64,000 nt of DNA from Phoronis australis (taxonomy: Eukaryota > Animalia > Phoronida): the NCBI GenBank assembly GCA_002633005.1, contig NMRA01000262.1, forward strand, positions 161,208-225,207, read 5' to 3'. Made by a program: the position numbers and the translations under genes. A model generated the notes under the pieces. That model saw only the letters and a list, made by a program, of their open reading frames with translations, had not been told where the DNA came from and did no database searches. How positions within the stretch are numbered: position 1 is the first letter of the stretch; each line of letters begins with the position of its first letter. Of the stretch, positions 7,145-59,033 are shown one piece after another.

Positions 7145-9433
7145 TCACGAAAACGCACGGGCAAGCGCGAAACGGTCAATGATCGTGAAGAGATAGGTCA
7201 TGCCTTGGCTCGCTGGTAGTGGGCCAACAAGATCCACATGGAGACTGCGAAACCTGGCAGCCGGAGAGGGACGCTTTACCAAAGGTGCCCGTGTGTGTCG
7301 ATGTATCTTGGAAGCTTGACAAGCATGACACTCTTTGCACCACCGCCGTATATCACGTTTCATACCTCGCCAGACAAAGCGCTGAGTGAGAGCCTGCTGA
7401 GTAGGGCGAACGCCAGCGTGGGAAAGCCCATGAATACGATCAAAAACAGCACGGGCCCATGTAGAGGGCAAGACAGGTTGGGGCGTGTCAGTGGACGTGT
7501 CACAAAGCAGAGTCGAGTCGCCAAACGGAATATCTTGTAGAGCAAGGCCCGTTGTAGCGGTTCGATATTCCGCCATTTCAGGAGACTGGCCTTGGTCATG
7601 AGCCAGCTCGCGGAAGTCACCAACAGAAAAGATGCTATGGTCACTGGATATGCCATTGATGTCGAAACGGGATAGTGCGTCAGCCACCACGTTAAACTTG
7701 CCTTTAAGGTATCGGATGTCGGTAGTAAACTCAGCTATAAAAGCAAGGTGCCGTGCCTGACGTGGGGAACGCTCACTGCCACTGTGCAATGCTGACACTA
7801 ACGGCTTGTGGTCAGTGTATAACGCAAAAGGTCCGCCCTCTAAAAAATGCCTGAAGTGCTTAACTGCGTTATAGGCCGCCAGGAGTTCACGGTCGAAAGC
7901 ACTGTACTTATGCTCTGTTTCGGAAAGCTTGCGTGAGAAGAAAGCAAGAGGAACCCAAGTACCGTCCTGAAGTTGCGTCAGCTGAACACCGATGGCCTTG
8001 TTAGACGCATCGACCGTAACGCTTGTAGGCGAGGTCGGATGAGGGTGACGCAAGAGCACAGCTTTTTTAAGGGCGTCTTTGGCCTTTTCGAAAGCAGTTT
8101 GGCAGGCAGCTGACCAGGTAATAGCTTGGCCTTTACCACTAGCTTGCGCATGGAGTGGAGTCAGGGCATCAGCGACGTGTGGAATAAAACAGTGATAGTA
8201 GTTCATCAATCCCAGAAATCGTTGCAGCTCAGCACGATTGGTTGGGGGAGCACAATCTTGAATAGAGGCTATGCGATCGGGGAGCGGAAGGATCCCACGG
8301 GCTGTGACGTGGTGTCCAAGGAAAGCCAATTCGGCAGCACCAAAAATGCACTTGGGCTTATTGATGACGAGACCGTTGGAGGACAGTACCATAAAGATCT
8401 GACGAAGATGTTCCAGATGTTCGGCATGCGAGCGGCTGGCCACCAAGATGTCATCGAGGTAGACAAAAGCGAACGAAACGTCCCTGAAAATGCCTTCTAT
8501 AAGGCGTTGGAAAGCCTGGGCAGCGTTCTTGAGGCCAAAGGACATGCGAAGAAATTCCCACAATCCAAAAGGTGTGATTATTGCAGTCTTGGGCACAGAA
8601 GATGGCGCAACCGGAATCTGATGATAGCCCCGAACCAGATCAATTTTGGAGAAAACTTGGCATCCGGTCAGATGGTTGTTGAAATCATGGATATGCGGCA
8701 ACGGGTAGCGGTCATCCGTGGTAGAAGCATTAAGTTGTCTGTAGTCACCACAAGGGCGCCATAGACCACCAGGCTTGGGGACGACATGGAGCAGTGAAGA
8801 CCACGGTGAATTGGAACGGCGAATTATACCCATCTTTTCCATTCGCAGAAATTCATCTTTAGCCGCCGCCAGTCGTTCAGGATTCAAACATTGGGCACAT
8901 GCGTGGACAGGTGGTCCCTGGGTTATGATATGGTGTTCAACACCATGTTTATTCGCCATGGAATCAAAACACGGAGTAAACAGCTCTGAAAACTGTTGTA
9001 ACAAATGTGAGTACTCGTCGTGGGCATGAAAGGAGAGACCCGCAAGGGTCAGTGAAATCGTGTTATGTCGCAGAAGTACAGAGGGATTATCGATAGACAA
9101 AAGGCGCTTGCCCTTGAGATCAATAACTAGGTCGTGGGCAATAAAAAAATCAGCTCCCAGAATCGGGCGAGTAACATCGGCAAGATAAAATTCATGAGCG
9201 TACCGCTGCTTAGGGCTGACCACCACCGAGAGGGTACGGGTGCCCCATTTGTTTATGGAAGTTCCGTTAGCAGCGGAGAGAGGTGCAGAAGGTGGATTGG
9301 TCTTGCGGTCTGTTGCAGAGGCAGGATAAACAGAAACGTCGGCGCCAGTGTCAATTAAAAAATATCTACCAGTGTGTTGGTCAACAATGGAGAACGTGTT
9401 GGAGGTGGAGATGCCGGCCGCTACCACGTTCAA
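7145..9433 (-). CDS. pol: Gypsy pol (protease, RT, RNase H, truncated integrase), accessed by -1 frameshift
   Basis: LIDTGAD protease; [27 protein letters not shown]; VDAS, DRELLA, TDHKPL, ADALSR RNase H; HHCC zinc finger and [12 protein letters not shown], then abrupt stop. Confidence 0.95.
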
Positions 9434-9454
9434 CGGCCGGCTGTGGCGTTTCCC
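9392..9454 (-). promoter_or_regulatory. -1 ribosomal frameshift signal: G GGA AAC slippery site + H-type pseudoknot
   Basis: GGGAAAC (9454-9448) in gag frame, 6-nt spacer, stem GCCGGCCG/CGGCCGGC, loop GAACGTG complementary to downstream CACGTTC (9398-9392). Confidence 0.8.
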
Positions 9455-10275
9455 TGGTTATTTGTCTTGGGTATCGGTGATGCAAACTTGCAGCCAGGCG
9501 GGCATCGACGAGCCTCGGGCCCAAACTTCATGTGGTAGAAGCATACGGTGGAGGAACCCATAAGGGGGCTGGCGTCACCCTGCTGGGAACGGGAACGGCG
9601 TCGGAAACGCTTATCGGCAGAAACCACGTCCACCGAAGCGGACGTGGACTTGGCATTGTCATCATAAAAACCCGAAAACGTTGTCGGACTGGTGGTAGGC
9701 ATAGAGACATGTTGCACTCCGGCAGTACGTGCCTCCCAGATACGGTCAGCGGTCGTAGCAAGGTCCTCTATGCTATTAATGCTGTGGCCCGCCAGGATAG
9801 TGCGAACGTCGGAAGGCAGGTTCGTTAGGAATAAAGCACGTTTTAAAGTCTGGGGGTCATCATTGAGAGCGTTGATACGTCTCATCAGAGCGGTGGGACG
9901 TTTGTCACCCAGGCCATTGAGGTTCAAAAGCTCAGAGTCCTTCTGCGCCTGGGACTTTCCAAAAGCGTTGATGAGCGCGGACTTCAATGCGTTATACTTG
10001 TTTGTGAGTGGTGGGTGGAGGAGTATAGCCTGAACCTCGTCGGCTGTGGTGACATCAAGGGCACTCACCACATAATCATATTTTGTCTGATCTTGCACAA
10101 TCCCTTTCGTTCCAAACTGAGCCTCGACTTTGGCAAACCAAACTTCGGGCGATTTTGTCCAAAAGTCTGGCAACCTGATGGATACCGCGTTTACCTGAGT
10201 TGTTTGCATTGCAAGCGTCTGGAGAGTTGAGGCGAGGTCAGTAACAAGCTTTGTATCACTATGTCCCTCAGCCAT
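9430..10275 (-). CDS. gag: Gypsy gag-like protein
   Basis: 281 aa; RLPDFW..PEVWF..VEAQF N-terminus and C-terminal CFYH..FG.EA.RC...C motif typical of this Gypsy group. Confidence 0.92.
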
Positions 10276-10291
10276 TTTAAGTGTTCACTGT

Positions 10292-10849: not shown

Positions 10850-11744
10850 TTTTAAATGTCCATATATTTTTATATGTGGGCACATTATGCCACCATCTTT
10901 GTCCGTCCATCCGGCATGTGCTGTTGTATTTCCAAAACCCCTTGATCTGTGTTGATGAAATTTTACAGATATGGTCCTATCATGGCTGAAACGGCATGAG
11001 CAAATTGACGGACGAATCCGAGAACTGTTGTGCAATTTTAATTTTGTTTACTTTTGCCTTTGCTGTTCGTTAATGGATTCTCATGAAACTTGGCAAATAG
11101 ACATCTATTAGGGAGATGATGCCACCTTCATGTTTGCAAATGGATTCAACGTATTTTGCAGCAGCTAGTACCCATTGTTACTGTTTTCAAGTGTTTTTGA
11201 AAATTTGTGATTGTGTTCTTACTGGGAAGAGCATGGTTGACGATTTTTAGACAGTTTGGACTACTGTGGCATCCCCTAGTGGCAGTTTGTGTTTTCACAT
11301 CTACAGCTATTTCTTCTTGTAGGTTCATTGATAAATTTGGCAAGTGTATTTCTATGAAGGTACAAAAGGTGACAATGTTAGATGTACCTGACTACCACTG
11401 TGCCCGCTTATTTTAATATTTTTACGATCTTGGCAGGTATACCATTGAGGAGAGCATTACTAACATGCTTAGCAATTTCTAGAGGCTATTTTATGTTTAC
11501 TGGCATTGCTGCATTTTGTGGTCGACAATAAATGATACCCACAACATGAACTACAATAACTTTAATAACTCTTAGAGATTTTAAAAACGTCTGATGTGTC
11601 GTGAAACAGAGAGAGATTTTATCAGCAAATATGCAAATTATACTGGCGCGGAATGCTTCAAATAATAATCATCCCTTGTATCTGCGCCATATGCAATGCA
11701 TACGCCTGTATGGGCACATAGCAACGCTCCACGTTGCTCTTGTT
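10850..11744 (+). mobile_element. HINE/DINE-1-like non-autonomous Helentron, family 1, copy A
   Basis: 5' subterminal IR (ATATGTGGGCACAT), GTCC microsatellite, internal repeats, 3' TGGGCACAT + GCAACG..CGTTGC palindrome + CTTGTT. Confidence 0.75.
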
Positions 11745-11947: not shown

Positions 11948-12604
11948 GTATGAATTGTATTACAGACTTTACAGTGTGTATTCTTTTGTCACAAGATGTC
12001 ATTTGTTTTTCCAATTTTGGTCCTTAAGGGGACTTGAATTATTTTATGTTCATCGCTGATTTATAGTCAAGAGTCCAGGGTTAATGGACTTTTCTAAATG
12101 TATTCTTTGACTTATATTGACACTTGCATACTTCATCCTATAAATGGTTGCCATTGATGCCTAAAATCTATGATGATGAACCAAAACTGTGTACTTAAAT
12201 ATTGTATTCATGTATGTGCAGTTTATGTAACTAACTCTCCTAATCTCATCTGTTGTCACTCCTCTCACAGCACTTTAATTAGTCTCCACTTATTCTGCTC
12301 AAAAATAATTACTAAATGTTATTTTCCATTTTGTTTTAAAAGCTGATAACCTTTCTGGAAATAAAAGAAACTTTATCAAATATTAGGTTAAGCAAAATCA
12401 ACTTACTCAGAGACTGAAGATTTAAGAGTTCGAAAGTTTTGGATTGTATTCTAGTGTCCTTTATCAATGAAAGGTGAAGGGACATCCTGGTTTCCCGCCA
12501 TTCTGTTCTCTGGAAGTAGTATGATATAAGAGATAGGTGGAAGCTGCAATCCCTGATCTCGATCCATACCTTCACCGAGACTAGGAAAAACCTTTCTTCA
12601 ATCT

Positions 12605-13824
12605 TTTTATGCATATTTATATGTGGACGCATTATGCCGTCATCTCCGTCCGTACGGGCGGCGTCCGTCCGGCGTCTGGCGTCCGGCGTCCGCTGCTCCA
12701 AAACCCTTTGACATATGTTCATGAAATTTGGCACATATGTTCCACTCATGAATGGGACGGCATGTGCGAACTTTCGGACGGATCCGACTACCGGTGTGCC
12801 CCCTAGTGGCAATTTTAGTTTTTTACGCTTACCTTTGTATCTTCAAAAGTCCTGAACGGATTTTCATGAAATTTGGTATGTAGGCACTTATTAGTGAGAT
12901 GACGCCATCCTCCCGTTTTCAGATGGAATCGACATAGTTTGCGCCACCTAGTGGCCATTTTTAGTGTTTTCGAGTGTGTTTTTGTGCGTCAACCCCTCTA
13001 TCAACCAAACCGCTCAAAGGATGATTGTGAAAATTGGCATGTATATGATTACTATGTAGAAGACGGTTGACGATGATTTTCCGACGATTTCGACTACTGT
13101 GGCGCCTCCTAGTGGCAGTTATGTTTTTTTTCGCCTGTGGCTGTATCTCCTAAATCGTTCGCAGGATTTTTACAAAATTGTGTAAGTATATATATATGAT
13201 GTTAACAACAGAACATGACGACTTTCGGACGGATTTGACTACCGGTGTGCCCCCTAGTGGCAATTTTAGTTTTTTTACGCTTACCTTTGTATCTTCAAAA
13301 GTCCTGAACGGATTTTCATGAAATTTGGTTTGTAGGTACCTATTGGTGAGATGACGCTATCCTCCCGTTTTCAGATGGATTCGACATAGTTTGCGCCACC
13401 TAGTGGCCATTTTTAGTGTTTTCGAGTCTGTTTTTGTGCGTCCACCCCTCTATCAACCAAACCGCTCAAAGGATGATTGTGAAAATTGGCATGTATATGC
13501 TTACTATGTAGAGGATGGTTGACGATGATTTTCCGACGATTTCGACTACTGTNTTTTTTTTTTTTTTTTGCACCTATGGCTGTATCTCCTAAACCGTTCG
13601 CAGGATCTTTACGAAATTTAATAAGTGTAATTATATGATGTTAACAACAGACGATGACCTAGCCTATTGAGGAGACAATGACCATGCCTTTCCATTTTGC
13701 AAAGTACAACAAACTACATATATGTCCTCTACTGGCCACTTTATGGTACCAATAAACAACCCTAGAAGGATACCGTATACGGTGCAATTGTGGGCGCATT
13801 TCAACGCTCTGCGTTGCTCTTGTT
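12605..13824 (+). mobile_element. HINE family 1, copy B (best preserved; ~450-bp higher-order repeat of three ~150-bp subunits)
   Basis: ATATGTGGACGCATTATGCCGTC..(GTCC)n start; block at 12771 repeated at 13222; end GTGGGCGCATTTCAACGCTCTGCGTTGCTCTTGTT. Confidence 0.85.
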
Positions 13825-13990: not shown

Positions 13991-14387
13991 CTGGGCTTGG
14001 AATTTTCCGCGGAAACGCGGATTTCCGCTTTTTTCAAATGTTCTGTCCGCGCATTTTATTATATTTCCGCGTAAAAAAAATCGGATTAGATATAAAATTT
14101 CTGCGGCAAATTCCTTTCTTACCGCGGCATTGCAGACGACGTTCACCTCGAAAAGCGAAGTTGCTCTTTATGTTTCGGAGGAACGTGAATTGTCAACATT
14201 GCAGGGGCATGTGGGATAGCGTGGTGGGATTTTCAATGGCATTGCTACTGATGGCGGTTACGTTTTTTTTGTCCTCCCGATTTTTGTCGGGGAAAAGTTC
14301 ACATGGACCATTTCAAGGCTGGGTAGCGCGCATGATTTGGGCCGTAAAAGTTTCCGCGTTTTTTGTCATTGGTCATTCCAAGCCCTG
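13991..14387. mobile_element. hAT-like MITE with 6-bp TSD
   Basis: TIRs C(T/A)GGGCTTGGAAT / ATTCCAAGCCCTG, subterminal TTCCGC repeats, TTGAAA on both sides (13985-13990, 14388-14393). Confidence 0.75.
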
Positions 14388-15018: not shown

Positions 15019-18000
15019 TTATTTGGCAGAATTCCGAAAATACCGCCAAGTATGTTGGTCTGACATCAAGTTTTTTTTGTTGTGTTTGTTCACTCTCTAC
15101 AGGTCACAATTTTCATCCGATTTTCTCGAAATTTGCACACAACGTCCTGTTTTCGTGTAATTTCGCCAAGTGTCGCTCCTCCGAGTGCTCTCGCACTGTT
15201 GCCAGTTTACCGGGTGCGTGAATAAGACTGCAGAGTATTTCTTTCTGATTTGTTGGCTAGTCACATGAAAGTCATCATGTTGTTCATAATCTCCGCCTTC
15301 ATCGTCGTCGTAGTCGTCCTCCCCATCGTCCTGTTTTCGTGTAATTTCGCCAAGTGTTGCTCCTCCGAGCGCTNTGTGTTTGTTCACTCTCTACAGGTCA
15401 CAATTTTCATCCGATTTTCTCGAAATTTGCACACAACGTCCTGTTTTCGTGTAATTTCGCCAAGTGTTGCTCCTCCGAGCGCTCTCGCACTGTTGCCAGT
15501 TTACCGGGTGCGTGAACAAGACTGCAGGCTATTTCTTATTGATTTGTTTGCTAGTCACATAAATGGTATCGTGTTGTTCATAATCTCCGCCTTCATCGTC
15601 ATGATCGTCGTCGTCGTCCTCCCCATCGTCCTGTTTTCGCGTAATTTTGCCAAGAGTCGCTCCTCCGAGCACTCTCGTTTTTTTTGTTTGTTTGCACGAT
15701 ACAAGTTGCAATTTTCGTCAGATCGTCACGAAATTTACACATAACACGTAGCTGTGGAAGTACTGGAAGCCTATCGTTTTTTGTCATAATGGGATCCAAG
15801 ATGGCGGCTGTGGTGGCCATTTTGTTTTCATTTTAAGATTCAAATGCTTCTGGAGGGTACAATTTTTACGTACAAAGCTGAAAATCGGCGCAATCATTGA
15901 ACAGGACGTGCGCTGCATGTATACTGTAAATTACTTATTTCTGGTTAAAGAAGGCGGAAATATCGGCACTTGCGCATGTGCACCTCGATTTCAGGAACAA
16001 AAACGTTTTCTACTGTAGAGGGTGCATTATAGGACCAATTGCTTCGACATTTTTCAGGTATTAGTTTCTTGTGACATGCTTATTATTCAGAATTGAAAAA
16101 CCGGAAGTTGCTTTCAAGATGGCGGATCTAGCGCATGTTGACCCATTTTCAGTCGTGCTGGAGTGCCATTTTAAACGGGAAGAGAAAAAAACCTGATTTT
16201 TTGCATGTGGATTCTCTGAGGTATACTCTTTCAAATGACCAACAATTTTTTTCTCAGACTTGCCGTTTTCGAGTTATTTGACTTAGAATTTCAAAAAAAT
16301 GCAAAATTTGATTTTTTTCAAAAAATTTATGGAATTAGGCAATACCACTAGTTTAGATAGAGTTTTGAACAGGCTTTCAGAAGATGTTTTCCATTTTTTG
16401 CTAGGACGTTTACTTTTCGAATTATTCGAGATTTTCTGATAGGGCTGTTCCTTTGTTGAACGCTCTTGCTGCATTGATGTTGGTTTAGCTTCTAGAGTGT
16501 AGCCTATTTCTTGCTAATTTATGATATCTAAATGCTTCGTATGAATGTTATGATGTTGTTCAGCATATGATCACCATCGTCATCATATTTGTCATCTTCG
16601 TCATCATCTCCGTCGTCGTCTTTTCAGTTAATTTCGCCAAGTATCGTTCAAGACTGTAGCCTATACTTCTGATGTCTGGCCTCTACGTTCGTCTTGTGAA
16701 TGTTTTCATTACTTGAATTGTTCATCATCGCCACCATCATGGTCATATTCATCATCTTCGTCATCATCTCTATCGTCGTCTTTTCTGTTAATTTCGCCAA
16801 GTGTTGCTCCTGGGAGCGCTTTCATTTTTTTGTTTGTTCGCACGATACAGGTCGCAATTTTCGTCACACAAGTTGTACATCTATGAGTACAGGAACCCTA
16901 TTGTTTTTTGACATAAATGGATCCAAGATGGCGGATATAGCGGCCATTTTGTTTCCAATTTCAGATTCAATTGCTCATAGAAGCCGTACAGGGCTGAAAA
17001 TCGGTAGAAATATTGAACTATCCAGGTATTACAAATCCACAAGAAATTATTCAGTTCCTATCAAAGATGGCGGAAATATCAGCCATGGCGCATGCGCACT
17101 TCGATTTTATTCAAAAAACGTTTTCTCCAGTAGAGGGCGCATTATTGCACCAATTTCTTCGAAATTTTTCACGTATTTTTTACTACTAGCTATTATTCTA
17201 TTTAAAAAACCAAAAGTTGTTTCCAAGATGGCAGATCTGGCGCATGTTGACCCATTTTTAGTCGTGCTGGCGTGCCATTTTAAACGGGAAGAGAAAATGA
17301 CTTGAATTTTTGCATGTGGATTCTCTGAGGCATACTCTTTCAAATGGCCTGTAACAATTTTTTTTTCAGACGTACCGTTTTTGAATTATTTTACTTTGAA
17401 TTAAAAAAAATGCAAAATTTCATTTTTTCGAAAAATTTACGGAAAGTTGAGAAACCATCAATTTAGATAGAGTTTTGAACGGGCTTTCAGAATATGCTTT
17501 CCATTTTTCGCTAGGACGTTTACTTTTTTAATTACCGTATTCACCGTAATCGCCCATGCCCCTATATGCACCCCCCCACACGTTTTCAGACTTGCTGAAA
17601 TAAGCACCCAGTCTATGAACGTGTACATGCGAGCAATAACGTACCTACAGTCCTAAAACTCGGTTACAGTAACCTCTTCAGTTTATCAAAAAAAATTTTG
17701 CACGGGTCTTCTAGACCACCAGTGGCACTGCTACGTTTGCATTTAGCCGTGACTATACACTTGAAAGTAACGCAGCGCTTCAAAAAGAACGCAACGGCAT
17801 TGCTACTCTCGTGACGACCGTGTCCCACTATGGTCTGACCTTTCAGTAAAGACACATCGACTGTCTCATGAATAAAAATAACTCGGTGTTAAACACACGT
17901 GGCCAGGAAGCGCGCGCTACATAAATCACATATATGAACCTGTCATCAAAGACATTAGTCAGTAACTATCCATTCATGAAACGGGTAGCATAGCATCGGT

Positions 18001-22338: not shown

Positions 22339-24405
22339 TTATGTGTGCCCACATATTTATATGTGAGTGCGTTATGCCGTCTTCCCTGTCCATCCATTCA
22401 TTGGTCTGTCCGGCTTCCCCTGCTATATTTCCAAAACAGCTTGATGTATGTTCATGAAATTTTGCACATATGTTCCTTTTAGGGATGAGATGGCATGAGC
22501 AAACTTTCGGACAGATCCGACTGCCGGTGAGCCCCCTAGTGGAAATGTAATTTTTACGTTTACTTCTGTATCATCAAAGATCCTCAATGTATTTTCATAG
22601 AAATTGCCAAATAGGCATCTATTAGTGAGATGACGCTATCCTCTTGTTTTCTAATGGATTTGAGGTATTTTGTGCCACCTAGTGGCCATTTTTACTGTTT
22701 TCTAGTCTGTGACTATGATTTTCCCACGACTTTGACTACTGGGGCAGCTCCTAGTGGCAGTTTTGTTTTCTTTTTGCACCCACATGGCTGTATCTCCTAG
22801 ACCCTCTGCAGGATCTATTGAATTTTGCAAGTGTATTTATATGAAGTTGACAACGAATGACGTCTACTTTCGGACAGATTCGACGAACGCTGTGCCCCCT
22901 AGTGGCAATTTCATTTTTTCTGTTTTCCTTTTTTCTCTGAAGTTCCTTGGCGGATTTTTTGTGAAATTTAGTAAATAGCTTCCTATTAAAAATGATGACA
23001 TATTCTTATTTTTGGATGCATTCAACATATTTTTCGCAATCTAGTGGTAACTTTTTTCTGTTTTCTAGTTTGTTTTTGGGGTCTGTCTCTTTATCACTCT
23101 AAGGAAGATTGTTTTCCAGTTTGTTTTGGGGGTCTGCCTCTTTATCACTCTAAGGACGATTTTGAAAATTAGTGGTTATGTTTCTACTGTGATGGGGACT
23201 GCTGATGATGATTTGTTGACCACTCATACTACTGTGGCGCCTCCTGTTGGCAGTTTTTGCGTCCATGGCTCAGTATCTCCCAAACCCTCTGCAAGATCTT
23301 TATTAAATTAGGCATGTTTATTGATATGAAGTTGACAACGAACAGTGACAACATTGGACAGATCCGACAATTGCTGTGCCCCCCCCCATAGTGGCAATTT
23401 TTTGGCTGTCCTCTTTATCTTTGAAACTTCTTGATTTTTATGAAGTTTATTAAATAGGTTTCTATTAAAGAGTTGTCAGGTTTTTAGATAGATTGGATAT
23501 AGCAGCCATTTTTAATGCCATGAAATTTTGCAAATAGGTTTCTAGTTAGGAGATGACGATGCCTTCTCATTTTCAGGCGGATTTGACCTATTCTGCGCCA
23601 CCAGGTGCTCATTTCAAACATTTTGTTTGGCCCCTAGTGGCAATTTTATTTTTTGGCATCCACGACTGTATCATCCTTTATTCTTTGCAAGGTGTGTTCC
23701 TACGGCAACAGAGGTTATGAGTTTCAGACCAATCCAACTACAGCTGTGCTCCTTAGTGGCAATTTTAATTTTCACGTTTGCCTCTGTAATTTACTAGAGT
23801 TCCTTGGTGCGTTTTCATAAAATTTGGCAAACATGTTTATTGTGAAGATAGCACTTTTCCTTTTTATGATGGATTCAATACATTCGGCTCCAACTATTGG
23901 CCATTTTAATTATTTTTCAATCTGTTTTTGTCGTCTGATTTTGTATCTGCCAAACCGTACAGAGAATCATTATGAAAACTGGGAGATGTGTTCCTACTGA
24001 CAAGAGCTTGACTGACGTGGGTTTTCAAACGGGTTCAATTACTGTTGTGCCCCCTAGTGACACTTTTTCGCATTTACGGTTGTATATCCTAAAACCTTAG
24101 CAAGATGTTTTTGAAATTTTGAAGTTGTTTAATCTGATCATCGTGACAGCAGATGGACGGATTACGTCAGTGGTTCCTAATGGCAGTTTTTTTACGTTTG
24201 CCTTTGTATCTTTGGAGTTCTTTTACAGATTTCCATGAAATTTTTCGAATTGTTCTGAGGAGCCACGGTACCTTGCCATATTTGGATGGGTTCAATGTAT
24301 TCTGTGCCAGCTAATGGCCTTTTATGATTCAAGCAAACACCCCTAGAAGCAGACTGTTTGCGGTGCAGTCATGGGCGCATTTCAACCCTCAGCGTTGCTC
24401 TTGTT
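22339..24405 (+). mobile_element. HINE family 1, copy C (long, diverged array)
   Basis: TGTGCCCACATATTTATATGTGAGTGCG start, repeated CCCCTAGTGG / ATGAAATTT subunits, end TGGGCGCATTTCAACCCTCAGCGTTGCTCTTGTT. Confidence 0.85.
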
Positions 24406-30940: not shown

Positions 30941-31760
30941 TTTATTCGCTCAATCGCATATAGTATGTACGTGGGCCTCTCCGATCGTCTGCCTGTCCGT
31001 CAGTCTGGTGTCTGCTGCTGTATACCTATGCTAAAACCCATTGATGGATATTCGTAAATCGCAGACATGCTGCTGCACTGACGAGCAAACTATTTTCTAA
31101 TGGATTCGACTTCCACTGTCTCCCGCTAGTAACGTTTTTACGTTTGCTTTCTGTTTCTACTGAGTTCCTTGGCGGATTTTCATGAAATTTGGCAAATAGT
31201 TAAGTTCTGTTATGGCGAACACACCATCTTGCCATTTCTCGCGGATACATTCTGTGCCCAAGTGGTCGTTCTTGTTATTCTCACATTTTTTTGGAGTTCA
31301 ACTCACCACTCGTACGATCCGCCTAAAGCATGAAAGATCATCTACAGCAGTTTTGATATGTATGGTCTTAATTGTTGACGACGAAAGTACGGCTGACAGA
31401 TCGTCCATCCTTTTGGCTAAGAGTCTCAGTGACTACTTTGGCATTCCCTAATGGCAGTTTCTCTTTACTTTAGGTATATACCCTTCAATAGATGTTCATG
31501 AAATTTGGCAAATATACCTTACTTTGAGGAGACGATGGTACCTTTCCCGTTTCCCACCCGGGACGTTTTAGACAAGTTTGGCCTAGGCTACGACCCCGTT
31601 CCCTAAAGAATCATTATGAAAGGTATCGAATATGTTTCTGCTGTGGAGCGGCATGACTGAGGACGTCGATTTTCACTGAAGTGCTGTACCGCCCTCGAAA
31701 GACAATTCTAATTTCCTTTGCGTCAGCTTCAATATTTACCAATTTCTTAGATGCATTTTC
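30941..31760 (+). mobile_element. HINE family 1, degraded copy D
   Basis: GTCTGCCTGTCCGTC head, CATGAAATTTGGCAAATA and CCCTA(A/G)TGGCAG subunits. Confidence 0.6.
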
Positions 31761-31901
31761 AAAAATATTGTTTGTCAATTAACCTACGACTCTCAACTGC
31801 GTAACAGAGGCAGAATTACTTAACAGTGAGCTTGAGCCTGGCTCTGGACCCCATGCACTGATGCCACCGTCTGTCGTCACAAGTTTTTGCCCAGCCCCAT
31901 A

Positions 31902-35771: not shown

Positions 35772-36619
35772 CCGAAATTCAGCTGTCAATTGTCATGATG
35801 GTGGAATTCAAAGTCATTTTGAATGAATATTTGACTTGTACTGTATAACATCTGCGTCACTTTCAAATTGTTGTTTGACTGCTGGACAACCCCTAACTAC
35901 ACATAAATGAAATATTTTAATTGATAACCAATCACTTCTCTAAAAACCACTGCACCAGGTGTTAGTCATTCTTGAGCTGTAGTCACAAAATGATATAACA
36001 TTCCTGTCAAACATTGCGCATTAAACACCTTGTAATCTTTATTCAAACATTTTTCATATTTGTTACTACAATAACTAAAAAGATCACCGTAGGTGTACTT
36101 TGCACTATCTGCATGCTTAATCCAACTAGTCAAACTGCCTGCTACAACTAGTAAAATTTGTCCTAAGCAAGCAAAGTAGCTGGTAGTAGTCAAAACATGA
36201 TTCAGTAATGCATGTAATCCATAAGACTGCATTGTCATTTGAGACATAGTCCAACTGTGCAGTATCAGATGAAATTTCATTGTTTGCATTTCTCATTTAC
36301 TTTATTGCCACCTATTGGAAACCACAAAAAGCTTGTGCAGTTGGGGGACCAAACTAAACTTCAAATGATACAGAAAAAAGTTAAGTAGTAGAAAATTCAC
36401 AAGCCAATACCCGGCTCTGGAATTCTTTGAGTTTTTCTCTGTGATTATGATGAAAGCTATTATGTGCACAAGCCAAATCAAGGTATTGTTTGACTATACA
36501 TCAAATAGTGCTGTCACTAACAGTTCTCAAATAAAGGAACACGTCACAAAAAGAAATGTGTGGTTTGTGCTGTTCTCATCGATACCATGGATTGTGGTAT
36601 CACATTGAGGTGGACAATA

Positions 36620-38100
36620 CAAAAATAGTAAAAACCGCTATTAGGTGGCGCAGAATATGCCAAATCTATTGTAAAGTGGAAAGATACTATCGCCATCATT
36701 GCAGCAGTTTGTTTGTCGATTTCCATTAAAAGCTAATAAGGAACTCTGATAATACAGAGGCAAATGTAAACACTAAACAAGCCACTAGGGGGTACAGTGG
36801 CTATCGTCATATTTATAATACCGGTAAAGCATTTGCAAAACTATAAAAGATCCTTCATTGCGGTAAGGATATACAACCAAGGACGCAAAAAAGACAAAAC
36901 CACCACCAAGAGGTGCCAGAGTTATCACACATGTCCAAAAATCAAAATCAGCCAGGGTCTTCTCACCAGGAACACATCTGTTTTTTAAATGATCTTTTAA
37001 GCAGTTGGACAGATAAAGTGTCAAATGCCATCAGGTGGTGTGCATTGAGTCAATAGGGTAGACTATTGTCACCTCCTTAATACAAACCTGTATGCAAAAT
37101 TTCACAAATATCCATCGATGAACTCCCAAGACACAAACGCAAACACTAAAATTACCATTAGAGGCCTCAGCAGTAGTCCGGTGAGTCTGAAGCTCATCAT
37201 AATTCCTTGTCAGCTCCATAGGAACAAATTTCACAGAACTCTTGCTAAGGGTTAAGGAGACACAGTCATAGACGACTACAATAGAACTGACAATAGGGGA
37301 TGCCAAAGTAGTCAAACCCGTCTGAATATCATCAGAAACACATCTGCAAACTTTCACAATCATCCTTGAAGAAGTTTGGTGGCAAATGCCAAAGAGACAA
37401 AACTTTTAAAAGTCACCACTAGGAGGCGCACAATAGGTCAAATCTGTTCGAAAATGAGATACCACTGTTGACTCTGCAATAGAAACCTATTAGTGAAATT
37501 TCATAAAAGTCTATCTTTGAACTTCGAAGATACACAGGAAAACGTAAAGAAATAAAATGGCGACTAAAGGGCACACCATCTCCACAGGAACACATATGCC
37601 AAACTTCACAAATTTCTTGCAAAGTGTTAAGGAGATATGAAAAACAAAATGCCCACTAGGGGCGCCAGAGTACTCAACATTAGGAACACGCATGCCAATT
37701 ACCATAGTAATTCTTCAAGTGGTTTGAATGATAGAAAAAAAACAAACTCAAAACTTTAAAAATGGCCACTAGAGGACGCAGAATCATCAAAGCCATACGA
37801 AAACAAAAAGGTGATGTCATCTCCTTAATAGAAACCTATTTGCTAAATTTCATGAAAATCCCACAACAAACTCCAAAGATGCAAAGGCAAATGTAAAAAA
37901 CGAAAACAGGCAGAAGAGGGCACAGCGGTAACAAGATCAGTTCAGACTTCATCCCCATCTGTCGTCAGCCTCATAGGAACACATCTGCCAAATCTCATTA
38001 CGATATTGCAAGGGGTTTAAGATATACAGCAGCAGATGCCTGACACCCATACAGATATGATGGCAATATACACCCACATATTAATGTGCGGGTGCATAAA
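36620..38100 (-). mobile_element. HINE family 1, copy E (reverse orientation)
   Basis: CACCCACATATTAATGTGCGGGTGCATAAA terminal hairpin at 38071-38100; CCACTAGG subunits. Confidence 0.8.
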
Positions 38101-45100: not shown

Positions 45101-45819
45101 TTTAAAGAACATAAACTATTTAATTATTTTTACCGGATTCAACTCTCACAGATTTCATGAAAACAAATTAATTATGCCAAATGTAGATAGCAAATCGATC
45201 ATTTATTGGGACAGTGCCCTTACAAAGTCTTCAGCTAGGGACACCGAAAGCTCTTCAAGAAAAGATCCCCTGATGCCCCTGAGTAAGTGGAAGAGGAAAA
45301 TTATGTGACTGGTACAACTAGACCATCAGCTTGCAAACTCAAAGTTCAGGATAAATTTTTAATGGTCTTGATGAAACTGAGAATGAGATTGTCAAACATT
45401 GACCTTTATGTGGTGTGGTTTTAAACAATTTAAGACACAATTTTTTGGAAAGTATCCAAATAACATTAAAATTAATGATGCGTCCGAGTTATGAATACAG
45501 GTTCCCAGTTCTTTGCAAAAGCATAACCAAAGTTAAAGTACATATACATTGGAGCGTCTATGTCACACACAACATTCAAGAGTCTTGATACGTGTTGACT
45601 CCAATGGAAGTGTTTGTTTTTCAATGAAACAACTGCAGGAAGTTTCCAAGACTAAGTTTTTGTAGCAACATGACGAAGAGCTAGGAAACTTCATATTGCA
45701 ATGCACATGAGCCTCAATTCGGCAAACTTTTAAATACCCAATTCAAATCATATGACACATTAGCCAATGTTGTCTATTCCATTTGATAACACGAACATGT
45801 CATCGTTTCTGTAATAAAA

Positions 45820-46956
45820 AACTTACTTACCAAATTTCATAACAATCCATCAAGAAACTTCAGAGAAACAGAGGTAAACGCAAAAAAATTGTATTGCCTC
45901 TAGGGGGTACAGCGTTTGTCGTATCCGTCTGAAAGTCGTCATCGTCCTCAGTCAACTTCATGTAAATAAACTTGGTAATTTTAAAAAATATCTTGTAGAG
46001 GATTTAGGATATATAGCCATGAGCATAAAATAAAACAAAACTACCACTAGGAGGCACCACAGTAGTTGAAGTCGTAGGCAAATCATCATTAGCCATTCTC
46101 TTCATAGTAGGAACATACATGCCAATGTTTACAATCATCCTTGGAGATGTTTGTTTGATAGAGCAGCGGATACCAAAAACAGACTCGAAAACAAATGGCC
46201 ACTAGGTGACGCAAAATACCTCGAATCCATCCAAAAATGTTTGTTAAATTTTGTGAAAATCTGTCGAGGACCTTTGAAGATACAGGGGCAAATGTAAAAA
46301 AACTAAAATTGCAACTAGGGGGCACACCAGTAGTCTGATCCGTCTGAAAATCATGGTTGTTTCTTGTCAACTTCATATAAATACACTAGCTAAATTTAAT
46401 AAAGATCCAGTAGAGCGTTTACGAGAAACAGCTATGGGTGCAAAAACAAACAAAACCGTCACCAGGAGGCACCACAGTAATTGAAGTAGTCGGAAAATTA
46501 TCGTCAGCTGCCCTCTTCACAATGAACACATATACCAATTTTCAATATCATCCTCAGAGTGATATGGTTGGTAACGGGGCACACACCAAAAACAGACTCA
46601 AAAACAGTAAAAATGGCAACTAGGTGGTGCAAAGTACCTCCGCAAATCCACCCGAAAATGGGAAGATAGCGTCATATCACTAATAAATGCCTATCTATCA
46701 AATATTATGAAAATCCAATGAGGACTTCCGAAGATGCAGAGATAAACATAAAATACTAAAAATACCACTTGGGGGAATACCGGCTTTCAGATAGGGCTGA
46801 AATTCGTCGACATCCGTCATCACTTTCCTAGGGAACACATCTGCCAAATCAAATCAAGATCATGACGGTATTAAGAAGATACAGCTGTAGATGCCGGATG
46901 ACAGACAGAGATGACGGGAATATGCACCCGCATATAAATATGTGGGTGCATAAAAA
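45820..46956 (-). mobile_element. HINE family 1, copy F (reverse orientation, HINT3 intron 1)
   Basis: Terminal hairpin TATGCACCCGCATAT-AA-ATATGTGGGTGCATA (46921-46952), GACAGACA microsatellite, CCACTAGG subunits. Confidence 0.85.
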
Positions 46957-52829: not shown

Positions 52830-53380
52830 TTTTTTTGCGCCCATGGCTGTATCTCCCAAACCGTTTGCAGGATCTTTACTAAATTTAGCTAGTGTATTTA
52901 TGTGATGTTGACAACGGACGATGACGACTTTAGGATGATTCTGACTACCGGTATTCCTCTAGTGGCAATTTTAGTATTTGCCTCTAGTGGCAATTTTAGT
53001 ATTTTACATTGACCTCTGTATTTTCTTCAGGTGTGTACTTTGTGTTACTTCGTGACTATGAAGGAAACGTTCCAAGTAGAAATTTGTTTCTGGCATTCTA
53101 ATGCTGTGCTAATCTCGTATGTTGGTAAATTTGTTTTTAATTCTATGTTTCTGTGGTGCTTTAAGCAACTTGTATATAGGATGTGCTTGTATTATGAAGA
53201 TTACTCACATTTTGCCCCTAGCCTATTGAGACAAGGACCATGCCTTTCCATTTTGCAAAGTACAACATACTACATATATGCCCTCTACTGGCCACTTTAT
53301 GGTACCAATAAACAACCCTAGAAGGATACCGTATGCGGTGCAATTGTGGGCGCATTTCAACGCTCTGCGTTGCTCTTGTT
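52830..53380 (+). mobile_element. HINE family 1, 3' part (copy G)
   Basis: Nearly identical to the 3' end of copy B, incl. GTGGGCGCATTTCAACGCTCTGCGTTGCTCTTGTT. Confidence 0.85.
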
Positions 53381-53714: not shown

Positions 53715-53913
53715 TTTTTGTTATGTGGACGCATTATGCCGTCATCTCTGTCCGTCCGGCCGGCGTCCCGTCTGACGTCCGTTTGCCATCCGCTGCTCTA
53801 TCTCCAAAACGCTTTGACGTACGTTCATGGAATTTTGCACATATGTTCCTATCATGGATGGGACAGCATGAGCGAACTTTCGGACGGATCCGACTTCCAG
53901 TGTGCCCCCTAGT
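53715..53913 (+). mobile_element. HINE family 1, 5' part (copy H), broken by a hAT-like insertion
   Basis: Matches 12620-12807 and stops within GTGCCCCCTAGT. Confidence 0.85.
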
Positions 53914-54115
53914 CAAGGCTTGGAATTTTCCGCGGATACCGGATTTCCGCTTTTTTCTTTTATTCCCTCTGCGTATTTTCGTAATACTTCCGTGGAAAAA
54001 AAATCGGATATGCCATAAAATTATCGCGGCAAATTGGTTTCTCACTGCAGCGTTGCCGACGGCTCGAAAAGCGGAAACTGCTTTTTATGTTTCGGAAGAA
54101 CGAAAATTGTAATTG
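53914..54115 (+). mobile_element. left end of hAT-like element related to 13991-14387
   Basis: CAAGGCTTGGAATTTTCCGCGG...; ~200 bp similar to the 13991 copy; right TIR not located. Confidence 0.7.
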
Positions 54116-56280: not shown

Positions 56281-59033
56281 GTCACAGAAATTCACTACAA
56301 GCTCAATAGGTGGCTCTGCTGTATGTACAGCCTAACCTTTTTAATTGACTGTCCACAAAATGAAATCCATCTCTGCTGAACTAATTTATAGAAAGCCTTG
56401 GGTTTAATTTGTAAACATTTTTCTTCAGTTCTGTAAGCTATCAAGGATCTCTTGATTAATTAAAACTTGTGCATAACTCATTGACAAATTTACCTATTCT
56501 TCTTAACTCTTAGTATTTTTAAAATAAAATAGTGAAATACAGATCTTTCCCTTTGTTATTGCTTGGGTATGCATTTATGTAATCTGGACCAATTGTTGGA
56601 CAAGCTTCATTTTGAAGGTACTTTAAACTTAACCAAGTTCGTTCATCATTTCTTACACTTGATTAGCTGACAGTCTCTTTTCACCAATAGTTTGGTGTTG
56701 AACAATTTTCCAACCCATGTCTAATCCAGTTTTAATTGACAGAAGTGTAAAAAATTGCCTCAGGCTTGTCATTAACGCCATTAGTGATGGTTTGTCAGGT
56801 TGTGATCTTAAAGTTTGTCGTCAACTTAGTGTGCTTTATCTACAGGAAATGTCTTGGATCTGCTGGCTAGCGATTCGTTGTCTTATAATTTCCCAAACAT
56901 AAAATTAACAACAGAGAGGATGTAGATTTCATTTTTCTTCAATTATACAGCCTGTGGTTGTCTGATCCCGAATACTTTCGGAATAGTTTTCATTAGATTT
57001 CTTGTGGCTGTTGAGTGTTGTTTTATTACATGCTTTCGATGTATGTTTTTGGGCATTAAGTCGACGGCTGTTTCTTCTTATATCCACTCATACCCATTTG
57101 ATACCTATGTTTGTCGTCTAAGACAATGGAAAAGATCAAACGACGGAGTCTACAGTTCGTATGTAATTTAATGTTATTTATTTTTAGGAAATGAGAAAAT
57201 TCTGAGCCACTAGGCCTTTTAACTCTGGTATGAGCCTTGCGTCCATGTAAATTGCGAAGTTAATTAAACTGTTCATACCAGCTTCGGTAGTTAATGTCAT
57301 CGAAGTAAACGGTAGATGATGCAAGGTATGCACTAAGATTTTTAATAATGTGACAATTTGAGAGCATTTTCATGTGGTTGACATAAAACTTATTTCTAAT
57401 TCAATTGGTGATTATTCAATCAAAATATAAGCAACTATTAGTGACGACACTATCCTTTAATTGTTGACGATAGCAGTAGCCTCTGGCGATAACTTTGATG
57501 ACACTAAAGGTAATCGTTCATACTGCACCACAGCGTCGATGCTCCGCTGTTAAATCCACCGGTGTAGTGCGAAATTAACTGGCACTGTTAACTTTGATCA
57601 AGGACTGAAGGCATCTCCCCGAAACATTGACGTGTCAACATTCAGTAGTACAAAAGGGCCTACAGTTGTACCCATTTGTGAGTATTCCATAAGTGATACA
57701 CAGAAATCTGTTGTGAGATCATTACACTAAAGTGTCACCATCACTCTCATTAACATGGTTTGTTCTCATGTATCTTCCTCTACAGTAGTTTTGTAAAAAT
57801 TACTTATACACACTATAAGTTATTTTTGGGAATTTAACACTTGTATGACTACTATGAACTACTTGTGCTATTCATGATGCCATAGCAGGTTTGGAAGACA
57901 TATTAGTTGCCATATTTGCATACTGAGTTATGAGCTCTGAGTGAACGAAAACTCACATCATTTAATTGTCAGGGGTAGACAGCTCACCTCCTAGCTCTCT
58001 GTCAGCATTTGATTCATGAACTAACACTACATGAAGGTGCATGGGACGTAGCTCTCTGTCTGCGAGGCACTAAGGAATGGGCTCAACTGAACTAATTGCG
58101 TGACTGCCACCAAATCATGCGAGTTGTCCTAAGGTTGTGCTCGTTTTCAACATCATCAATATCAAAAGAGGATTTGTATCAAATTAGAAGAGTATCTTGT
58201 GTCAGTATCCAAGGAGTGCTGGTGTCATCTGGTGTCAGTATCCAAGGAGTGCTGGTGTCCAGTGAACAGTATTTGTATCATTCTTATTTTGAAACACAGG
58301 CACCCAACCTTGACATTGAAACCTGTCTCAATGCTGCCTTACATAGTAACTCCGTACTATTGATCAATGCCTGAGTAATTATGCACACATGTGAGGAACA
58401 AAATCCATTTTCAGTGACAGTTTCAAGGTTTAATCACTAAACTCTGCTGCAAGTATATCCAATTAATCAGAAATCATTTAGTAGTAGTTCAATGGCGAGT
58501 GTCAGTCATTCCCTAATGAAGTGTATACCGGAAAATTTAGAAATGTACATTAGACTCATTTGGAGAAATTTCAGTTTCACTTCCTTGAGGTCCAGGTGGT
58601 TTGGACTTGTCTGACCCCTAGTGGTGATGGCTGATTTTGAGACCAGCAACGAAATGTTGCCAGCAAAACTAATGTGTAGTTTCACCAGATACAGTCAGAT
58701 CTCTTTAACAACTTAACCTGTTTAGAAGACTATTTAACAACCAATTTTTGAGACCCAATTTTACCTAGTGTACAGCAAACCCTCATTAATTTTGGATAAA
58801 TTTAATTGGCAAATTTGCTCTTATCTTATTTTATGTCTTAAACCCTTGTAGGGTGTTGATGACATTTGGTAGATGAGTTCCTATGGAGCTGATGACAAAT
58901 GATGATGACCCAAGTACTAGTATGTTTGCCTCCCTATCTTCAGTGTTTCTTAGCGGGATTTCATAAAATTAAGCTAGTAGGCTTCTATTTGAGATACGAT
59001 GATGCCTTCCCGTTTTCCGATAGGTTTGACTTA

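Follow-up and report, generated by a model that had tools for sequence, protein, structure and literature searches.

A HINE-type element and its relatives in the window

The window, a stretch of 64,000 nucleotides of Phoronis australis DNA, contains a non-autonomous Helentron-type element, copy B, and further copies of the same family (Table 1). Copy B consists of a left flank, a microsatellite-like stretch, a tandem array and a right flank. Its 5' end is approximate and its 3' end is exact at 13824. Loose ends of RNA reads mark the termini of the family at 12612 (preceding letters ..TTTTTATGCGCCCA) and 13823/13824, and the termini obtained from alignments of copy ends agree with them. The array is a 452-bp higher-order repeat of three subunits that is present twice, and the three subunit types (A, B and C) are 61-77% alike outside the box described below.

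Non-autonomous Helentrons of the HINE type are recognized here by the criteria given in the available text of PMC4067079 and PMC7492417, namely subterminal inverted repeats (subTIRs) of about 11-15 bp, a short inverted repeat adjoining the 5' subTIR, a stem-loop about 8-35 bp from the 3' end, and a microsatellite with central tandem repeats and no coding capacity. In the present family, the 5' and 3' subTIR arms are complementary at 11/11 positions. The 5' subTIR, ATGCGCCCACA(T), was recovered from the RNA-read loose ends at 12612 and has copies at 46940-46951 and 22343-22354; the short inverted repeat ATGTGGACGCAT adjoins it, and both are intact at 46922-46951 (pair 46922-46933 / 46940-46951, 6 nt apart). 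Copy B itself is without about 6 bp of the 5' subTIR, and it is because of this deletion in its 5' arm that a search for terminal inverted repeats in copy B alone found none. The 3' hairpin is conserved at 4/4 of the 3' ends found in the window (11722, 13802, 24383 and 53358). The element ends in ..CTCTTGTT, TTTTT precedes the 5' end of the family, and the flanks derived from reads are AT- and T-rich. The element is without coding capacity, and the sole open reading frame (ORF) of more than 110 aa that overlaps it, on the minus strand at 12336-12842, matches no Pfam family. The element that hosts the boxes is a genuine HINE-type non-autonomous Helentron, as the first-pass annotation had proposed, with subTIRs, 5' inverted repeat, (CCGT)n microsatellite, tandem array and a 3' hairpin near a T-rich end.

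Within the 64-kb window there is no Rep/helicase/endonuclease ORF of an autonomous Helentron partner. ARAGORN predicts 0 tRNA genes and Rfam gives no match at E<=0.01 (single match E=0.89); an origin from a tRNA, a SINE or a pol III unit was rejected on these grounds and on the T-runs 3' of the box on the plus strand. Elsewhere in the window, the ORF at 27496-28725 has no Pfam family and no homologue, and the named proteins closest to the neighbouring Ty3/Gypsy pol come from gastropods.

The family occupies nine loci in the window, which gives the right order of magnitude to the earlier count of about eight copies. The subunits were defined by nhmmer as 60 matches, and these cover 6,251 bases (9.8% of the window).

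Table 1. Copy B, its CTCF-type boxes and other copies of the family in the window
Feature	Position	Strand	Basis or remarks
HINE copy B, non-autonomous Helentron-type element	12600..13824	+	RNA-read loose ends, copy-end alignments
5' inverted repeat ATGTGGACGCAT	12621..12632	+	complementary to family 5' subTIR ATGCGCCCACAT
(CCGT/CCGG)n microsatellite-like stretch	12646..12692	+	between left flank and array; (ACGG)n on opposite strand
Tandem array, 7 subunits	12690..13658	+	partial 12690-12759, A 12770-12904, B 12917-13065, C 13076-13209, A' 13221-13356, B' 13369-13516, C' 13529-13648
CTCF-type core CCACTAGGGGGCAC, subunit A	12796..12809	-	exact match
CTCF-type core CCACTAGGTGGCGC, subunit B	12941..12954	-	exact match
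CTCF-type core CCACTAGGAGGCGC, subunit C	13102..13115	-	1 mismatch: A at K position
CTCF-type core CCACTAGGGGGCAC, subunit A'	13247..13260	-	exact match
CTCF-type core CCACTAGGTGGCGC, subunit B'	13393..13406	-	exact match
N then T-run at expected box of subunit C'	13553	.	sequence uncertain
Right flank	13658..13824	+	holds 3' subTIR TTGTGGGCGCAT 13788-13799, hairpin, T-rich end
Weak CTCF-like word CCAGTAGAGGACAT, right flank	13722-13735	-	consensus scan allowing mismatches
3' hairpin CAACGC-TCT-GCGTTG	13802-13816	+	8 nt from element end
T-rich end CTCTTGTT	13817-13824	+	3' terminus, copy B
Older copy, same family	10866..11744	+	4 subunit matches; 3' hairpin end 11722-11744
Long copy or copies	22343..24405	+	17 subunit matches; 3' end 24405; exact boxes 22672, 22892
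Decayed fragment	31008..31765	+	5 subunit matches
Inverted copy	36607..38080	-	12 subunit matches; boxes on plus strand
Inverted copy, strand control for RNA	45771..46955	-	8 subunit matches; intact 5' subTIR and inverted repeat 46922-46951
3' part of copy	52830..53380	+	subunits, ~190-bp extra internal segment, right flank 96% identical to that of copy B
5' part of copy	53715..54004	+	left flank and 2 subunits
Fragment	58837..59000	+	2 partial subunit matches; without box columns

CTCF-type boxes in the array

The boxes were scored against the core consensus CCASYAGRKGGCRS, a 14-nt IUPAC string with 64 allowed words that was used instead of a position weight matrix and that is the human ChIP consensus quoted in PMC6746451. 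Five boxes lie on the minus strand of copy B at the positions previously annotated, and the start-to-start spacings of 145, 161, 145 and 146 bp were reproduced. The first-pass annotation had all five boxes matching the consensus; four do so exactly, but the box at 13102 is a match with one mismatch (A for K). Similarly, it had placed a box in every ~150-bp subunit, which is true for 5/7 subunits of copy B but not for the first, which ends before the box, or the last, which has an N and a T-run. The spacing had also been called nucleosome-like, a description that falls away, as 145-161 bp merely reflects how long one monomer of the array is; the central repeats of oyster HINEs usually measure 140-180 bp in the available text of PMC7492417, and the present length falls inside or close to this range.

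The core of subunit A is identical at 14/14 positions to the first 14 nt of CCACTAGGGGGCACTA, which the available part of PMC5694663 gives as the reference site of a quantitative in-vitro study of binding by CTCF (not the CTCF of this species). Subunits B and C carry what is described as the canonical GGCGC variant of the CTCF core. The CTCF used with the reference site is reportedly human. The box is an excellent CTCF-type core and, judged by its letters, is predicted to bind host CTCF.

Matches to the consensus are greatly enriched in the window as a whole. Exact matches number seven, against an average of 0.00 over 100 shuffles that preserve dinucleotides, and there are 50 matches with at most two mismatches against 4.28 expected. 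Inside the subunits fall 30/50 of the latter, all of them in the subunits' own orientation. Relative to the element, all boxes share one orientation, copies on the opposite strand included, and the co-orientation claimed at first pass stands. The family's subunits contain only six exact contiguous matches, four of which are in copy B; the boxes that had been noted in diverged copies (22.5-24.1, 36.6-37.9, 45.9-46.6 and 53.9 kb) do exist there and differ from the consensus at 0-2 positions. The box equals the canonical CTCF core in types A, B and C alike, type C having A at the K position.

Conservation of the box among copies

Divergence was measured in 37 subunits outside copy B, each compared with its nearest subunit type. 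The box differs at 96/515 positions (18.6%) versus 1114/3563 (31.3%) outside it (Fisher p = 1.3e-9), and at G/C positions the values are 20.7% versus 41.5% (p = 6e-14), although these p-values overstate the certainty because the subunits are related and non-independent and their alignment is profile-guided. In G/C columns the frequency of the top base is 0.786 in the box and 0.627 outside. The expectation that the motif would stand out from the flanking subunit sequence is upheld in part: the box is less diverged than the average flank, but it is not uniquely conserved, its 14-column window ranking 10th of 119. The nine windows with higher scores each include part of the box's first half or of the A-run next to it. 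The conservation of this A-run, which lies just upstream of the box, and of a second box (ATTTCATGAAAT-like, columns 31-45) equals that of the box itself. Variation between the subunit types is found mainly at consensus positions 9 (G 23, T 12, A 8) and 13 (A 22, G 22), both of which are degenerate in CCASYAGRKGGCRS.

RNA reads provide evidence that is independent of the profile. On the old copy at 45.8-46.9 kb, reads that derive from other members of the family are placed mostly as box-centred stretches of 35-53 nt, and they replace the A of this copy by C at 46313 (1603/1655) and 46618 (1069/1146) and by G at 46209 (463/542) and 46056 (463/646). All four read-majority changes restore the canonical core. 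Over copy B itself, 0 of 40 variant positions in the reads, out of 126 in all, lie within the five boxes, but only about two would be expected there, so that this count is not informative.

Among gap-free aligned boxes, 24/41 have two or more mismatches. Since old copies lose the box, it is likely to be maintained by selection on the transposon lineage, that is on master copies, and not on individual insertions, and the loss argues against maintenance at the level of the host. In the copies, decay at CpG sites exceeds that elsewhere by a factor of only about 1.4 (137/326 versus 977/3237), and this slight excess makes heavy germline methylation of the kind that would block CTCF binding unlikely.

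Transcription of the family

Over copy B, RNA-seq depth peaks at about 1000; coverage is limited to 12612-13824 and falls to near 0 in the flanks. First mates map to the minus strand at about 71:1 over copy B and to the plus strand at about 30:1 over the inverted copy that serves as strand control (the library type is unstated, so the RNA strand is left unassigned), and the RNA of the family comes almost wholly from one strand of the element. The loose ends at the termini agree at a low level only (0.39-0.66), which points to many loci, and joints in the reads show that the number of subunits differs between copies. Such strong one-strand RNA from a non-coding Helentron derivative is noteworthy in itself.

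We give about even odds to the reading that copy B is a young representative of a non-coding, transcribed family of high copy number whose ~150-bp subunits each carry a conserved box predicted to bind host CTCF.

Relation to known elements

The family has much in common with Cg_HINE, pearl, DTC84 and DINE-1-type elements as these are described in the available portions of PMC7492417, PMC3879986 and PMC4067079. The common features are a non-coding sequence, a 5' subTIR with an adjacent inverted repeat, an ACGG/CCGT microsatellite, a central tandem array of ~145-160-bp units, a 3' subTIR, a 3' hairpin and T-rich ends, and also many dispersed copies with variable subunit number and conserved boxes in the core repeats. 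In particular, CvG, DTC84 and Cg_HINE elements have a (CCGT)n-type microsatellite module according to the parts available of PMC7492417 and PMC3879986. Copy B differs from Cg_HINE, pearl and DTC84 in that its array is a three-subunit higher-order repeat and in that its box is a CTCF core. The word 'CTCF' has 0 occurrences in PMC7492417, and in the available text of that source, PMC3879986 and PMC4067079 it is not mentioned.

Across 7,151 oyster HINE arrays (PMC7492417), the first 400 nt of each contain 0 occurrences of 16 CTCF-core 12-mers and 0 occurrences of two words from the second box; by word search, the family is not among the oyster clusters CL1-13, the 13 largest. The absence of the box from these arrays suggests that the CTCF-type box is a trait of this family and not a general property of HINEs. 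A metagenome scan with a second, box-independent word, CCAAATTTCATRAAAATCC, returned at least 107 loci, at which the subunit profile gave five weak matches at the word and no homologous subunit among them.

In mammals, CTCF sites borne by transposable elements (TEs) are known from the rodent B2 SINE. According to the available part of PMC8627837, putative CTCF sites have been spread by retrotransposition. The present family resembles these mammalian cases in that a strong CTCF core forms part of its consensus and potential sites are thereby spread across the genome. However, the mammalian elements are retrotransposons with one site per copy, binding has been shown for them, and vertebrate CTCF blocks loop extrusion, whereas the family of copy B is a rolling-circle DNA element in a protostome with 3 to at least 8 co-oriented predicted sites per copy. 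Rolling-circle tandem repeats are also linked to insulation and protection from silencing in Caenorhabditis elegans, where the available text of a preprint describes PATC insulators derived from Helitron minisatellites (bioRxiv 10.64898/2026.08.08.743475). As described there, these act by protein-independent DNA mechanics with a 10-bp periodicity in a nematode without CTCF, in contrast to the discrete protein-type motif found here once per ~150 bp. In a vertebrate, Xenopus tropicalis, Helitron-marked sperm chromatin loops were reportedly described by Shi et al. in 2023 (Cell Rep), and this case likewise ties rolling-circle transposons to features of 3D chromatin.

The closest parallel to the box itself is in the core repeats of DTC84, pearl CvA and PERI, which in the available text of PMC3879986 carry a short, conserved, part-palindromic box near the repeat end that is read as a possible protein-binding site. 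Those boxes differ in sequence and are proposed there with no identified binder, whereas here the candidate binder is named. Conserved boxes in the core repeats of pearl, DTC84, HINE and derived bivalve satellites have long been noted, in the literature as far as it is available, with no candidate binder; the box described here gives one such conserved segment a precise, testable candidate, CTCF. Literature searches found no earlier description of CTCF-site arrays in invertebrate HINEs, in line with the novelty supposed at first pass. New, then, are TE-borne CTCF-type sites in the form of co-oriented arrays in a HINE, an observation that is real and a function that is predicted.

Other readings of the box

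The box could instead be a cis element of the transposon whose likeness to CTCF sites is coincidental, for example a site for the Rep/helicase/endonuclease, a structure formed by single-stranded DNA in rolling-circle transposition, or a point at which recombination adds or removes subunits. This is unlikely but carries real weight. Segments of reduced variability are known from related core repeats, such as a 12-nt palindrome near the repeat end of DTC84 (described in the available text of PMC3879986), and the oyster clusters CL1, 2, 10, 13 and CL4 have only two conserved segments in common (available text of PMC7492417). The present box lies near the subunit end in a constant orientation relative to the (ACGG)n microsatellite, is imperfectly palindromic (GCCAC-TAG-GTGGC in type B) and is accompanied by a second palindromic box; its conservation in the lineage with decay in old copies would fit a transposition signal, and the variable number of subunits at read joints is consistent with recombination. 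On the other hand, a 14/14 match to a consensus of only 64 words is very unlikely by chance, given the 0.00 in 100 window shuffles, the box is unrelated to the true 3' terminus and the subTIRs, and it is absent from the oyster HINE arrays examined. A hairpin model of the box was rejected for lack of support from covariation: the central pair of this putative structure is complementary in no more than 12/43 subunits, and there are almost no compensatory changes. The idea that the subunit mimics a Helitron 3' end (hairpin and CTAG) was also dropped: the real 3' end is without CTAG, and the upstream hairpin occurs only in type A.

A box with no function at all is quite unlikely. Its apparent conservation would then come from the youth of the family, shared descent and the profile-guided alignment, and its likeness to CTCF sites from chance. 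The loss of the box in old copies, the nine other 14-column windows that score higher and the reliance of the statistics on non-independent sequences from one 64-kb window are all compatible with this, and by our own estimate roughly one chance match to the consensus is conceivable across the repeat library of a whole genome. [quoted passage not shown] The least probable of the readings considered here is that another sequence-specific factor binds the box, or that it belongs to an internal promoter or enhancer responsible for the one-strand transcription, with no part played by CTCF. The abundant transcription, the 30-70:1 bias that tracks orientation at two opposed copies and the many loci suggest signals borne by the element, and two or three conserved blocks per subunit could form a composite regulatory module. 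However, neither a tRNA-like sequence nor any other Rfam family is present, the plus-strand T-runs 3' of the box argue against pol III, and CTCF is the simplest candidate, given that the core is identical to a validated CTCF site.

Possible role of CTCF recruitment and its implications

Binding by host CTCF, the reading we prefer, would be in keeping with what is reported of CTCF in related animals. A review of the Spiralia reports CTCF orthologues in molluscs (available text of PMC10658182), and a 'similar binding motif' of CTCF is stated, in a source available in part, to be common to bilaterians. Among motifs in annelid open chromatin, a CTCF motif ranks first in abundance and is found mainly at promoters, and TAD boundaries in squid are enriched in a CCCTC-like motif. 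If Phoronis australis has a CTCF orthologue of conserved specificity, as we infer, each insertion would present 3 to at least 8 co-oriented sites about 150 bp apart. The likeliest benefit to the element would be open or shielded chromatin that permits transcription, and this benefit is favoured because promoters and open chromatin are what CTCF motifs mark in a spiralian. A vertebrate-type role as a loop anchor is less likely: according to the available text of a 2026 preprint, motif-defined CTCF sites in protostomes are at baseline for Hi-C insulation and looping, which weakens an architectural reading.

A bolder proposal, which we regard as a tentative possibility, is that this rolling-circle family maintains high-affinity CTCF arrays for its own life cycle, recruiting host CTCF so that its copies stay open, are protected against silencing and yield RNA from one strand, and thereby scattering clusters of co-oriented sites throughout the genome.

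The many near-identical predicted sites would amount to a natural experiment on CTCF beyond vertebrates and flies, in a spiralian, in which copies of differing age and insertion polymorphism would be used to follow CTCF binding, chromatin opening and insulation. Annotation of CTCF sites by motif scanning, as in the FIMO-based panels of the 2026 preprint, would count these repeats many times, and the repeated counting of co-oriented boxes spaced by ~150 bp could distort statistics of orientation and spacing. If the proposal is true, the family is a large hidden component of motif-based CTCF maps in such genomes, and its clusters of sites would be raw material for spiralian promoters or boundaries.

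Structure and copies of the HINE-type element

Copy B, a non-autonomous Helentron element of the HINE type (about 12600-13824, plus strand), ends at 13824 when copy ends are aligned (...TTGTGGGCGCAT TT CAACGC-TCT-GCGTTG CTCTTGTT), with a hairpin 8 nt before the T-rich 3' end that is kept at all four 3' ends of the window. A search of copy B by itself found no terminal inverted repeats; this was settled by RNA-seq reads of the same species, which run off the element at 12612 and 13823/13824. Since these reads supply the letters preceding 12612 (consensus ..TTTTTATGCGCCCA), the family 5' end can be given as ATGCGCCCACAT-ATTTAT-ATGTGG(G/A)CGCAT, a subterminal inverted repeat (subTIR) with an adjoining inverted repeat; ATGCGCCCACA at this end is exactly complementary to the 3' word TGTGGGCGCAT at 13789-13799. 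Both repeats are complete in the copy at 46922-46951, and the 5' arm of copy B is short by about six bases. The element has no coding capacity. Its features fit the HINE/DINE-1 definition as excerpted from Thomas et al. (PMC4067079), and passages on Cg_HINE, pearl and DTC84 (PMC7492417, PMC3879986) describe the same combination of microsatellite, tandem array and non-coding sequence.

The array (see table) is built from three diverged subunit types, A (145 bp), B (161 bp) and C (145 bp), which are mutually 61-77% alike over short aligned stretches and combine into a 452-bp higher-order unit that occurs twice in copy B, at about 90-96% identity. Family subunits were defined by an iterated nhmmer profile made from the copy B subunits, which gave 60 hits at nine loci in the whole window, two of them in opposite orientation; the first-pass annotation had put the number at about eight copies. 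In the copy at 52.8-53.4 kb, a non-repeat segment of about 190 bp (53025-53216) separates the subunits from the right flank. The right flank of the family carries a weaker CTCF-like word, CCAGTAGAGGRCAT, with one or two mismatches and oriented like the subunit boxes.

Coordinates of the repeat features and CTCF-type words in the window
Feature	Position	Strand	Remark
Tandem array, seven subunits	12690-13658		copy B
(CCGT)n-type microsatellite	12646-12692		copy B
Family subunit loci	10.9-11.4, 12.7-13.65, 22.4-24.3, 31.0-31.8, 36.6-38.0, 45.8-46.9, 52.8-53.0, 53.8-54.0, 58.8-59.0 kb		nhmmer profile
Core CCACTAGGGGGCAC	12796 and 13247	minus	exact consensus match
Core CCACTAGGTGGCGC	12941 and 13393	minus	exact consensus match
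Core CCACTAGGAGGCGC	13102	minus	1 mismatch (A at K position)
CCAGTAGAGGRCAT	13722-13735 and 53278-53291	minus	right flank
Ty3/Gypsy-type LTR retrotransposon	7145-10284	minus	long open frames
Minisatellite, 38-bp unit x9	53-400
Minisatellite, 44-bp unit x16	35064-35771
Minisatellite, 52-bp unit x16	40230-41068		100% identity
Minisatellite, 20-bp unit x11	41348-41568

CTCF-type cores in the subunits

The consensus searched, CCASYAGRKGGCRS, is an IUPAC-type CTCF core used in the first-pass annotation and corresponds to the human ChIP-chip consensus quoted in PMC6746451. The five minus-strand words which that annotation had listed in copy B all lie where it placed them, at its spacings of 145, 161, 145 and 146 bp, although only four match the consensus exactly. 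Its statement that each subunit contains a core holds for five of the seven: the first subunit ends short of the 14-column core (hereafter the box), and the last has an N and a T-run at the box site. Exact matches number seven in the window, compared with an average of 0.00 when it was shuffled 100 times with dinucleotides preserved, and matches with up to two mismatches number 50 against 4.28 expected. Family subunits make up 9.8% of the window and contain thirty of these 50, every one in the orientation of its subunit, as the claim of co-oriented cores had implied. The sole exact match outside the family, CCAGTAGAGGGCGC (17127-17140, plus strand), sits in a segment of about 500 bp whose duplicate at 15773-16288 (77% identity) has no consensus match within two mismatches.

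The subunit A core is identical to the first 14 letters of CCACTAGGGGGCACTA, the CpG-free reference site of a quantitative in vitro study (passages of PMC5694663), in which CCACTAGGGGGCGCTA is termed a canonical CTCF site; types B and C bear the GGCGC form. The least fixed box positions among 41-46 aligned subunits are 9 (G 23, T 12, A 8) and 13 (A 22, G 22), at both of which the CTCF consensus is itself degenerate; CpG decay would likewise produce the G/A split seen at position 13.

Conservation and decay of the box

Averaged over its 14 columns, the box holds 1.11 bits of information in the profile alignment, compared with 0.90 over all columns. It ranks tenth among 119 sliding windows; each of the nine that rank higher overlaps the A-run just upstream or the box's own first half. 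Also strongly kept is a second box, which is ATTTCATGAAAT-like. At columns with a G/C consensus, the top base is retained at 0.786 in the box (10 columns) and 0.627 outside it (41 columns). In a further comparison, every subunit hit outside copy B (53 in all) was set against whichever of the A, B and C types of that copy it most resembled; 37 were counted, and 13 without box columns and three too short for typing were left out. The box diverges less than the rest of the subunit (96/515, 18.6%, versus 1114/3563, 31.3%; p = 1.3e-9), most clearly at G/C positions (20.7% versus 41.5%; p = 6e-14), with p-values that are generous because the sequences are related and profile-aligned. The first-pass annotation had called the motif one of the most recognisable parts of diverged copies; it is better kept than the average flank, but not uniquely so.

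An independent check came from RNA reads aligned at 90% likeness to an old inverted copy (45.8-46.9 kb), which 97% of them match only partially, over box-centred stretches of 35-53 nt (46032-46066, 46193-46237, 46297-46349 and 46588-46633). The reads restore the canonical base at decayed positions 46313 (A to C, 1603/1655), 46618 (A to C, 1069/1146), 46209 (A to G, 463/542) and 46056 (A to G, 463/646; all run X11), and in the family majority, therefore, the cores of types A, B and C are all intact. The best-surviving part of the subunit is the A-run plus the box plus about 20 nt. Among 41 gap-free aligned boxes, the number with zero to five mismatches is 7, 10, 13, 5, 5 and 1, one of the seven perfect boxes being an alignment artefact across an indel; contiguous exact matches in family subunits number only six, four of them in copy B. 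Because the family majority is intact while old insertions lose the box, we read the constraint as acting on the transposing lineage and not on individual insertions.

Transcription of the family

In a fifth of each of three RNA-seq runs carrying the same species label, depth reaches about 1000 strictly within 12612-13824 and is near zero in unique flanks. Summed bin depths favour first-mate-on-minus by about 71:1 in copy B (run X11) and first-mate-on-plus by about 30:1 in the inverted copy (45797-47003), the library type being unstated; the bias flips with the orientation of the element, so the RNA strand follows the element and not the locus. One-strand RNA may reflect transcription from an own promoter or strongly orientation-biased read-through. 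Loose read ends at the termini agree poorly (0.39-0.66) and pass into many different flanks, which indicates that many loci contribute RNA, and read joints reveal copies with fewer or more subunits. The commonest right-flank junction is that of the 53.2-kb copy with its extra segment of about 190 bp (agreement 0.93-0.96; about 500-590 reads per run); copy B is therefore a minority structural variant.

Neighbouring repeats

A second, unrelated-looking repeat family with units of about 240-260 bp (1450-2200 and 3860-4965) carries the box CCACCAGTGGGCRC at 1750 and 4658, one mismatch from the CTCF consensus. The context 3' of this box is loosely similar (..CA.YAGTG..GAAA), the boxes of the other units are decayed, and the two families' boxes may be homologous. 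The two-mismatch word CATGTAGATGGCAC stands at 18507-18520 (plus) and 59479-59492 (minus), distant and on opposite strands, and may point to an additional repeat family bearing such a CTCF-like word. Copy B is followed directly by another repeat (13993-14387), which has an RNA depth of about 100-140, mostly first-mate-on-minus; low loose-end agreement at both borders suggests a further transcribed dispersed element. The Ty3/Gypsy-type element includes RT, RNase H, an integrase zinc-binding domain and a DUF7041 gag-like part, and the nearest named relatives of its pol frame are gastropod (Batillaria, 72%; also Plakobranchus and Elysia); by this relationship the host would probably be a marine mollusc. 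The complete identity of the 52-bp units points either to a very young array or to an effect of assembly.

Discussion

To the following reading we give roughly even odds: the subunits of a HINE family hold a high-quality CTCF-type site that the transposing lineage maintains, and through these sites each insertion would bind host CTCF at several points, all in the same orientation. Alternatively, the box could be a cis element intrinsic to the transposon whose likeness to CTCF is coincidental, by analogy with the conserved palindrome of the DTC84 core repeats. We consider this rather unlikely, as coincidence sits poorly with seven exact matches against none in shuffles, and a search for covariation in a putative hairpin of the box found none. 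That the box is functionless is improbable, and its use by another factor or as an internal promoter module is about as improbable.

The relevance of a vertebrate-type motif in spiralians rests on published papers. CTCF orthologues are reported in molluscs (passages of the review PMC10658182), an abstract-level statement gives CTCF a 'similar binding motif' across bilaterians, squid TAD boundaries show a CCCTC-like motif (PMC9023564), and in an annelid a CTCF motif, the most abundant one in open chromatin, sits mostly at promoters. According to a 2026 preprint, motif-defined protostome CTCF sites are without insulation or looping signal in Hi-C. Under CTCF binding, the subunit boxes, as predicted sites, would recruit the host protein at several co-oriented points per insertion, and this putative binding would serve to keep the element's chromatin open or shielded. 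Such a state is more likely than vertebrate-style loop anchoring, because of the annelid motif positions and the transcription of the family on the one hand and the missing insulation signal on the other.

HINEs in general do not share the box, since 16 CTCF-core 12-mers had no occurrence in the first 400 nt of 7,151 oyster arrays. In agreement with the first-pass annotation, full-text literature searches found no description of CTCF-type arrays in HINEs or other invertebrate rolling-circle elements, and the Cg_HINE paper (PMC7492417) does not mention CTCF.

Transposon-borne CTCF sites are well known in mammals. The abstract of PMC8627837 likewise attributes the spread of putative CTCF sites to retrotransposition. 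What is new here is the occurrence of CTCF-type arrays in a HINE element, whose functional role is a prediction.
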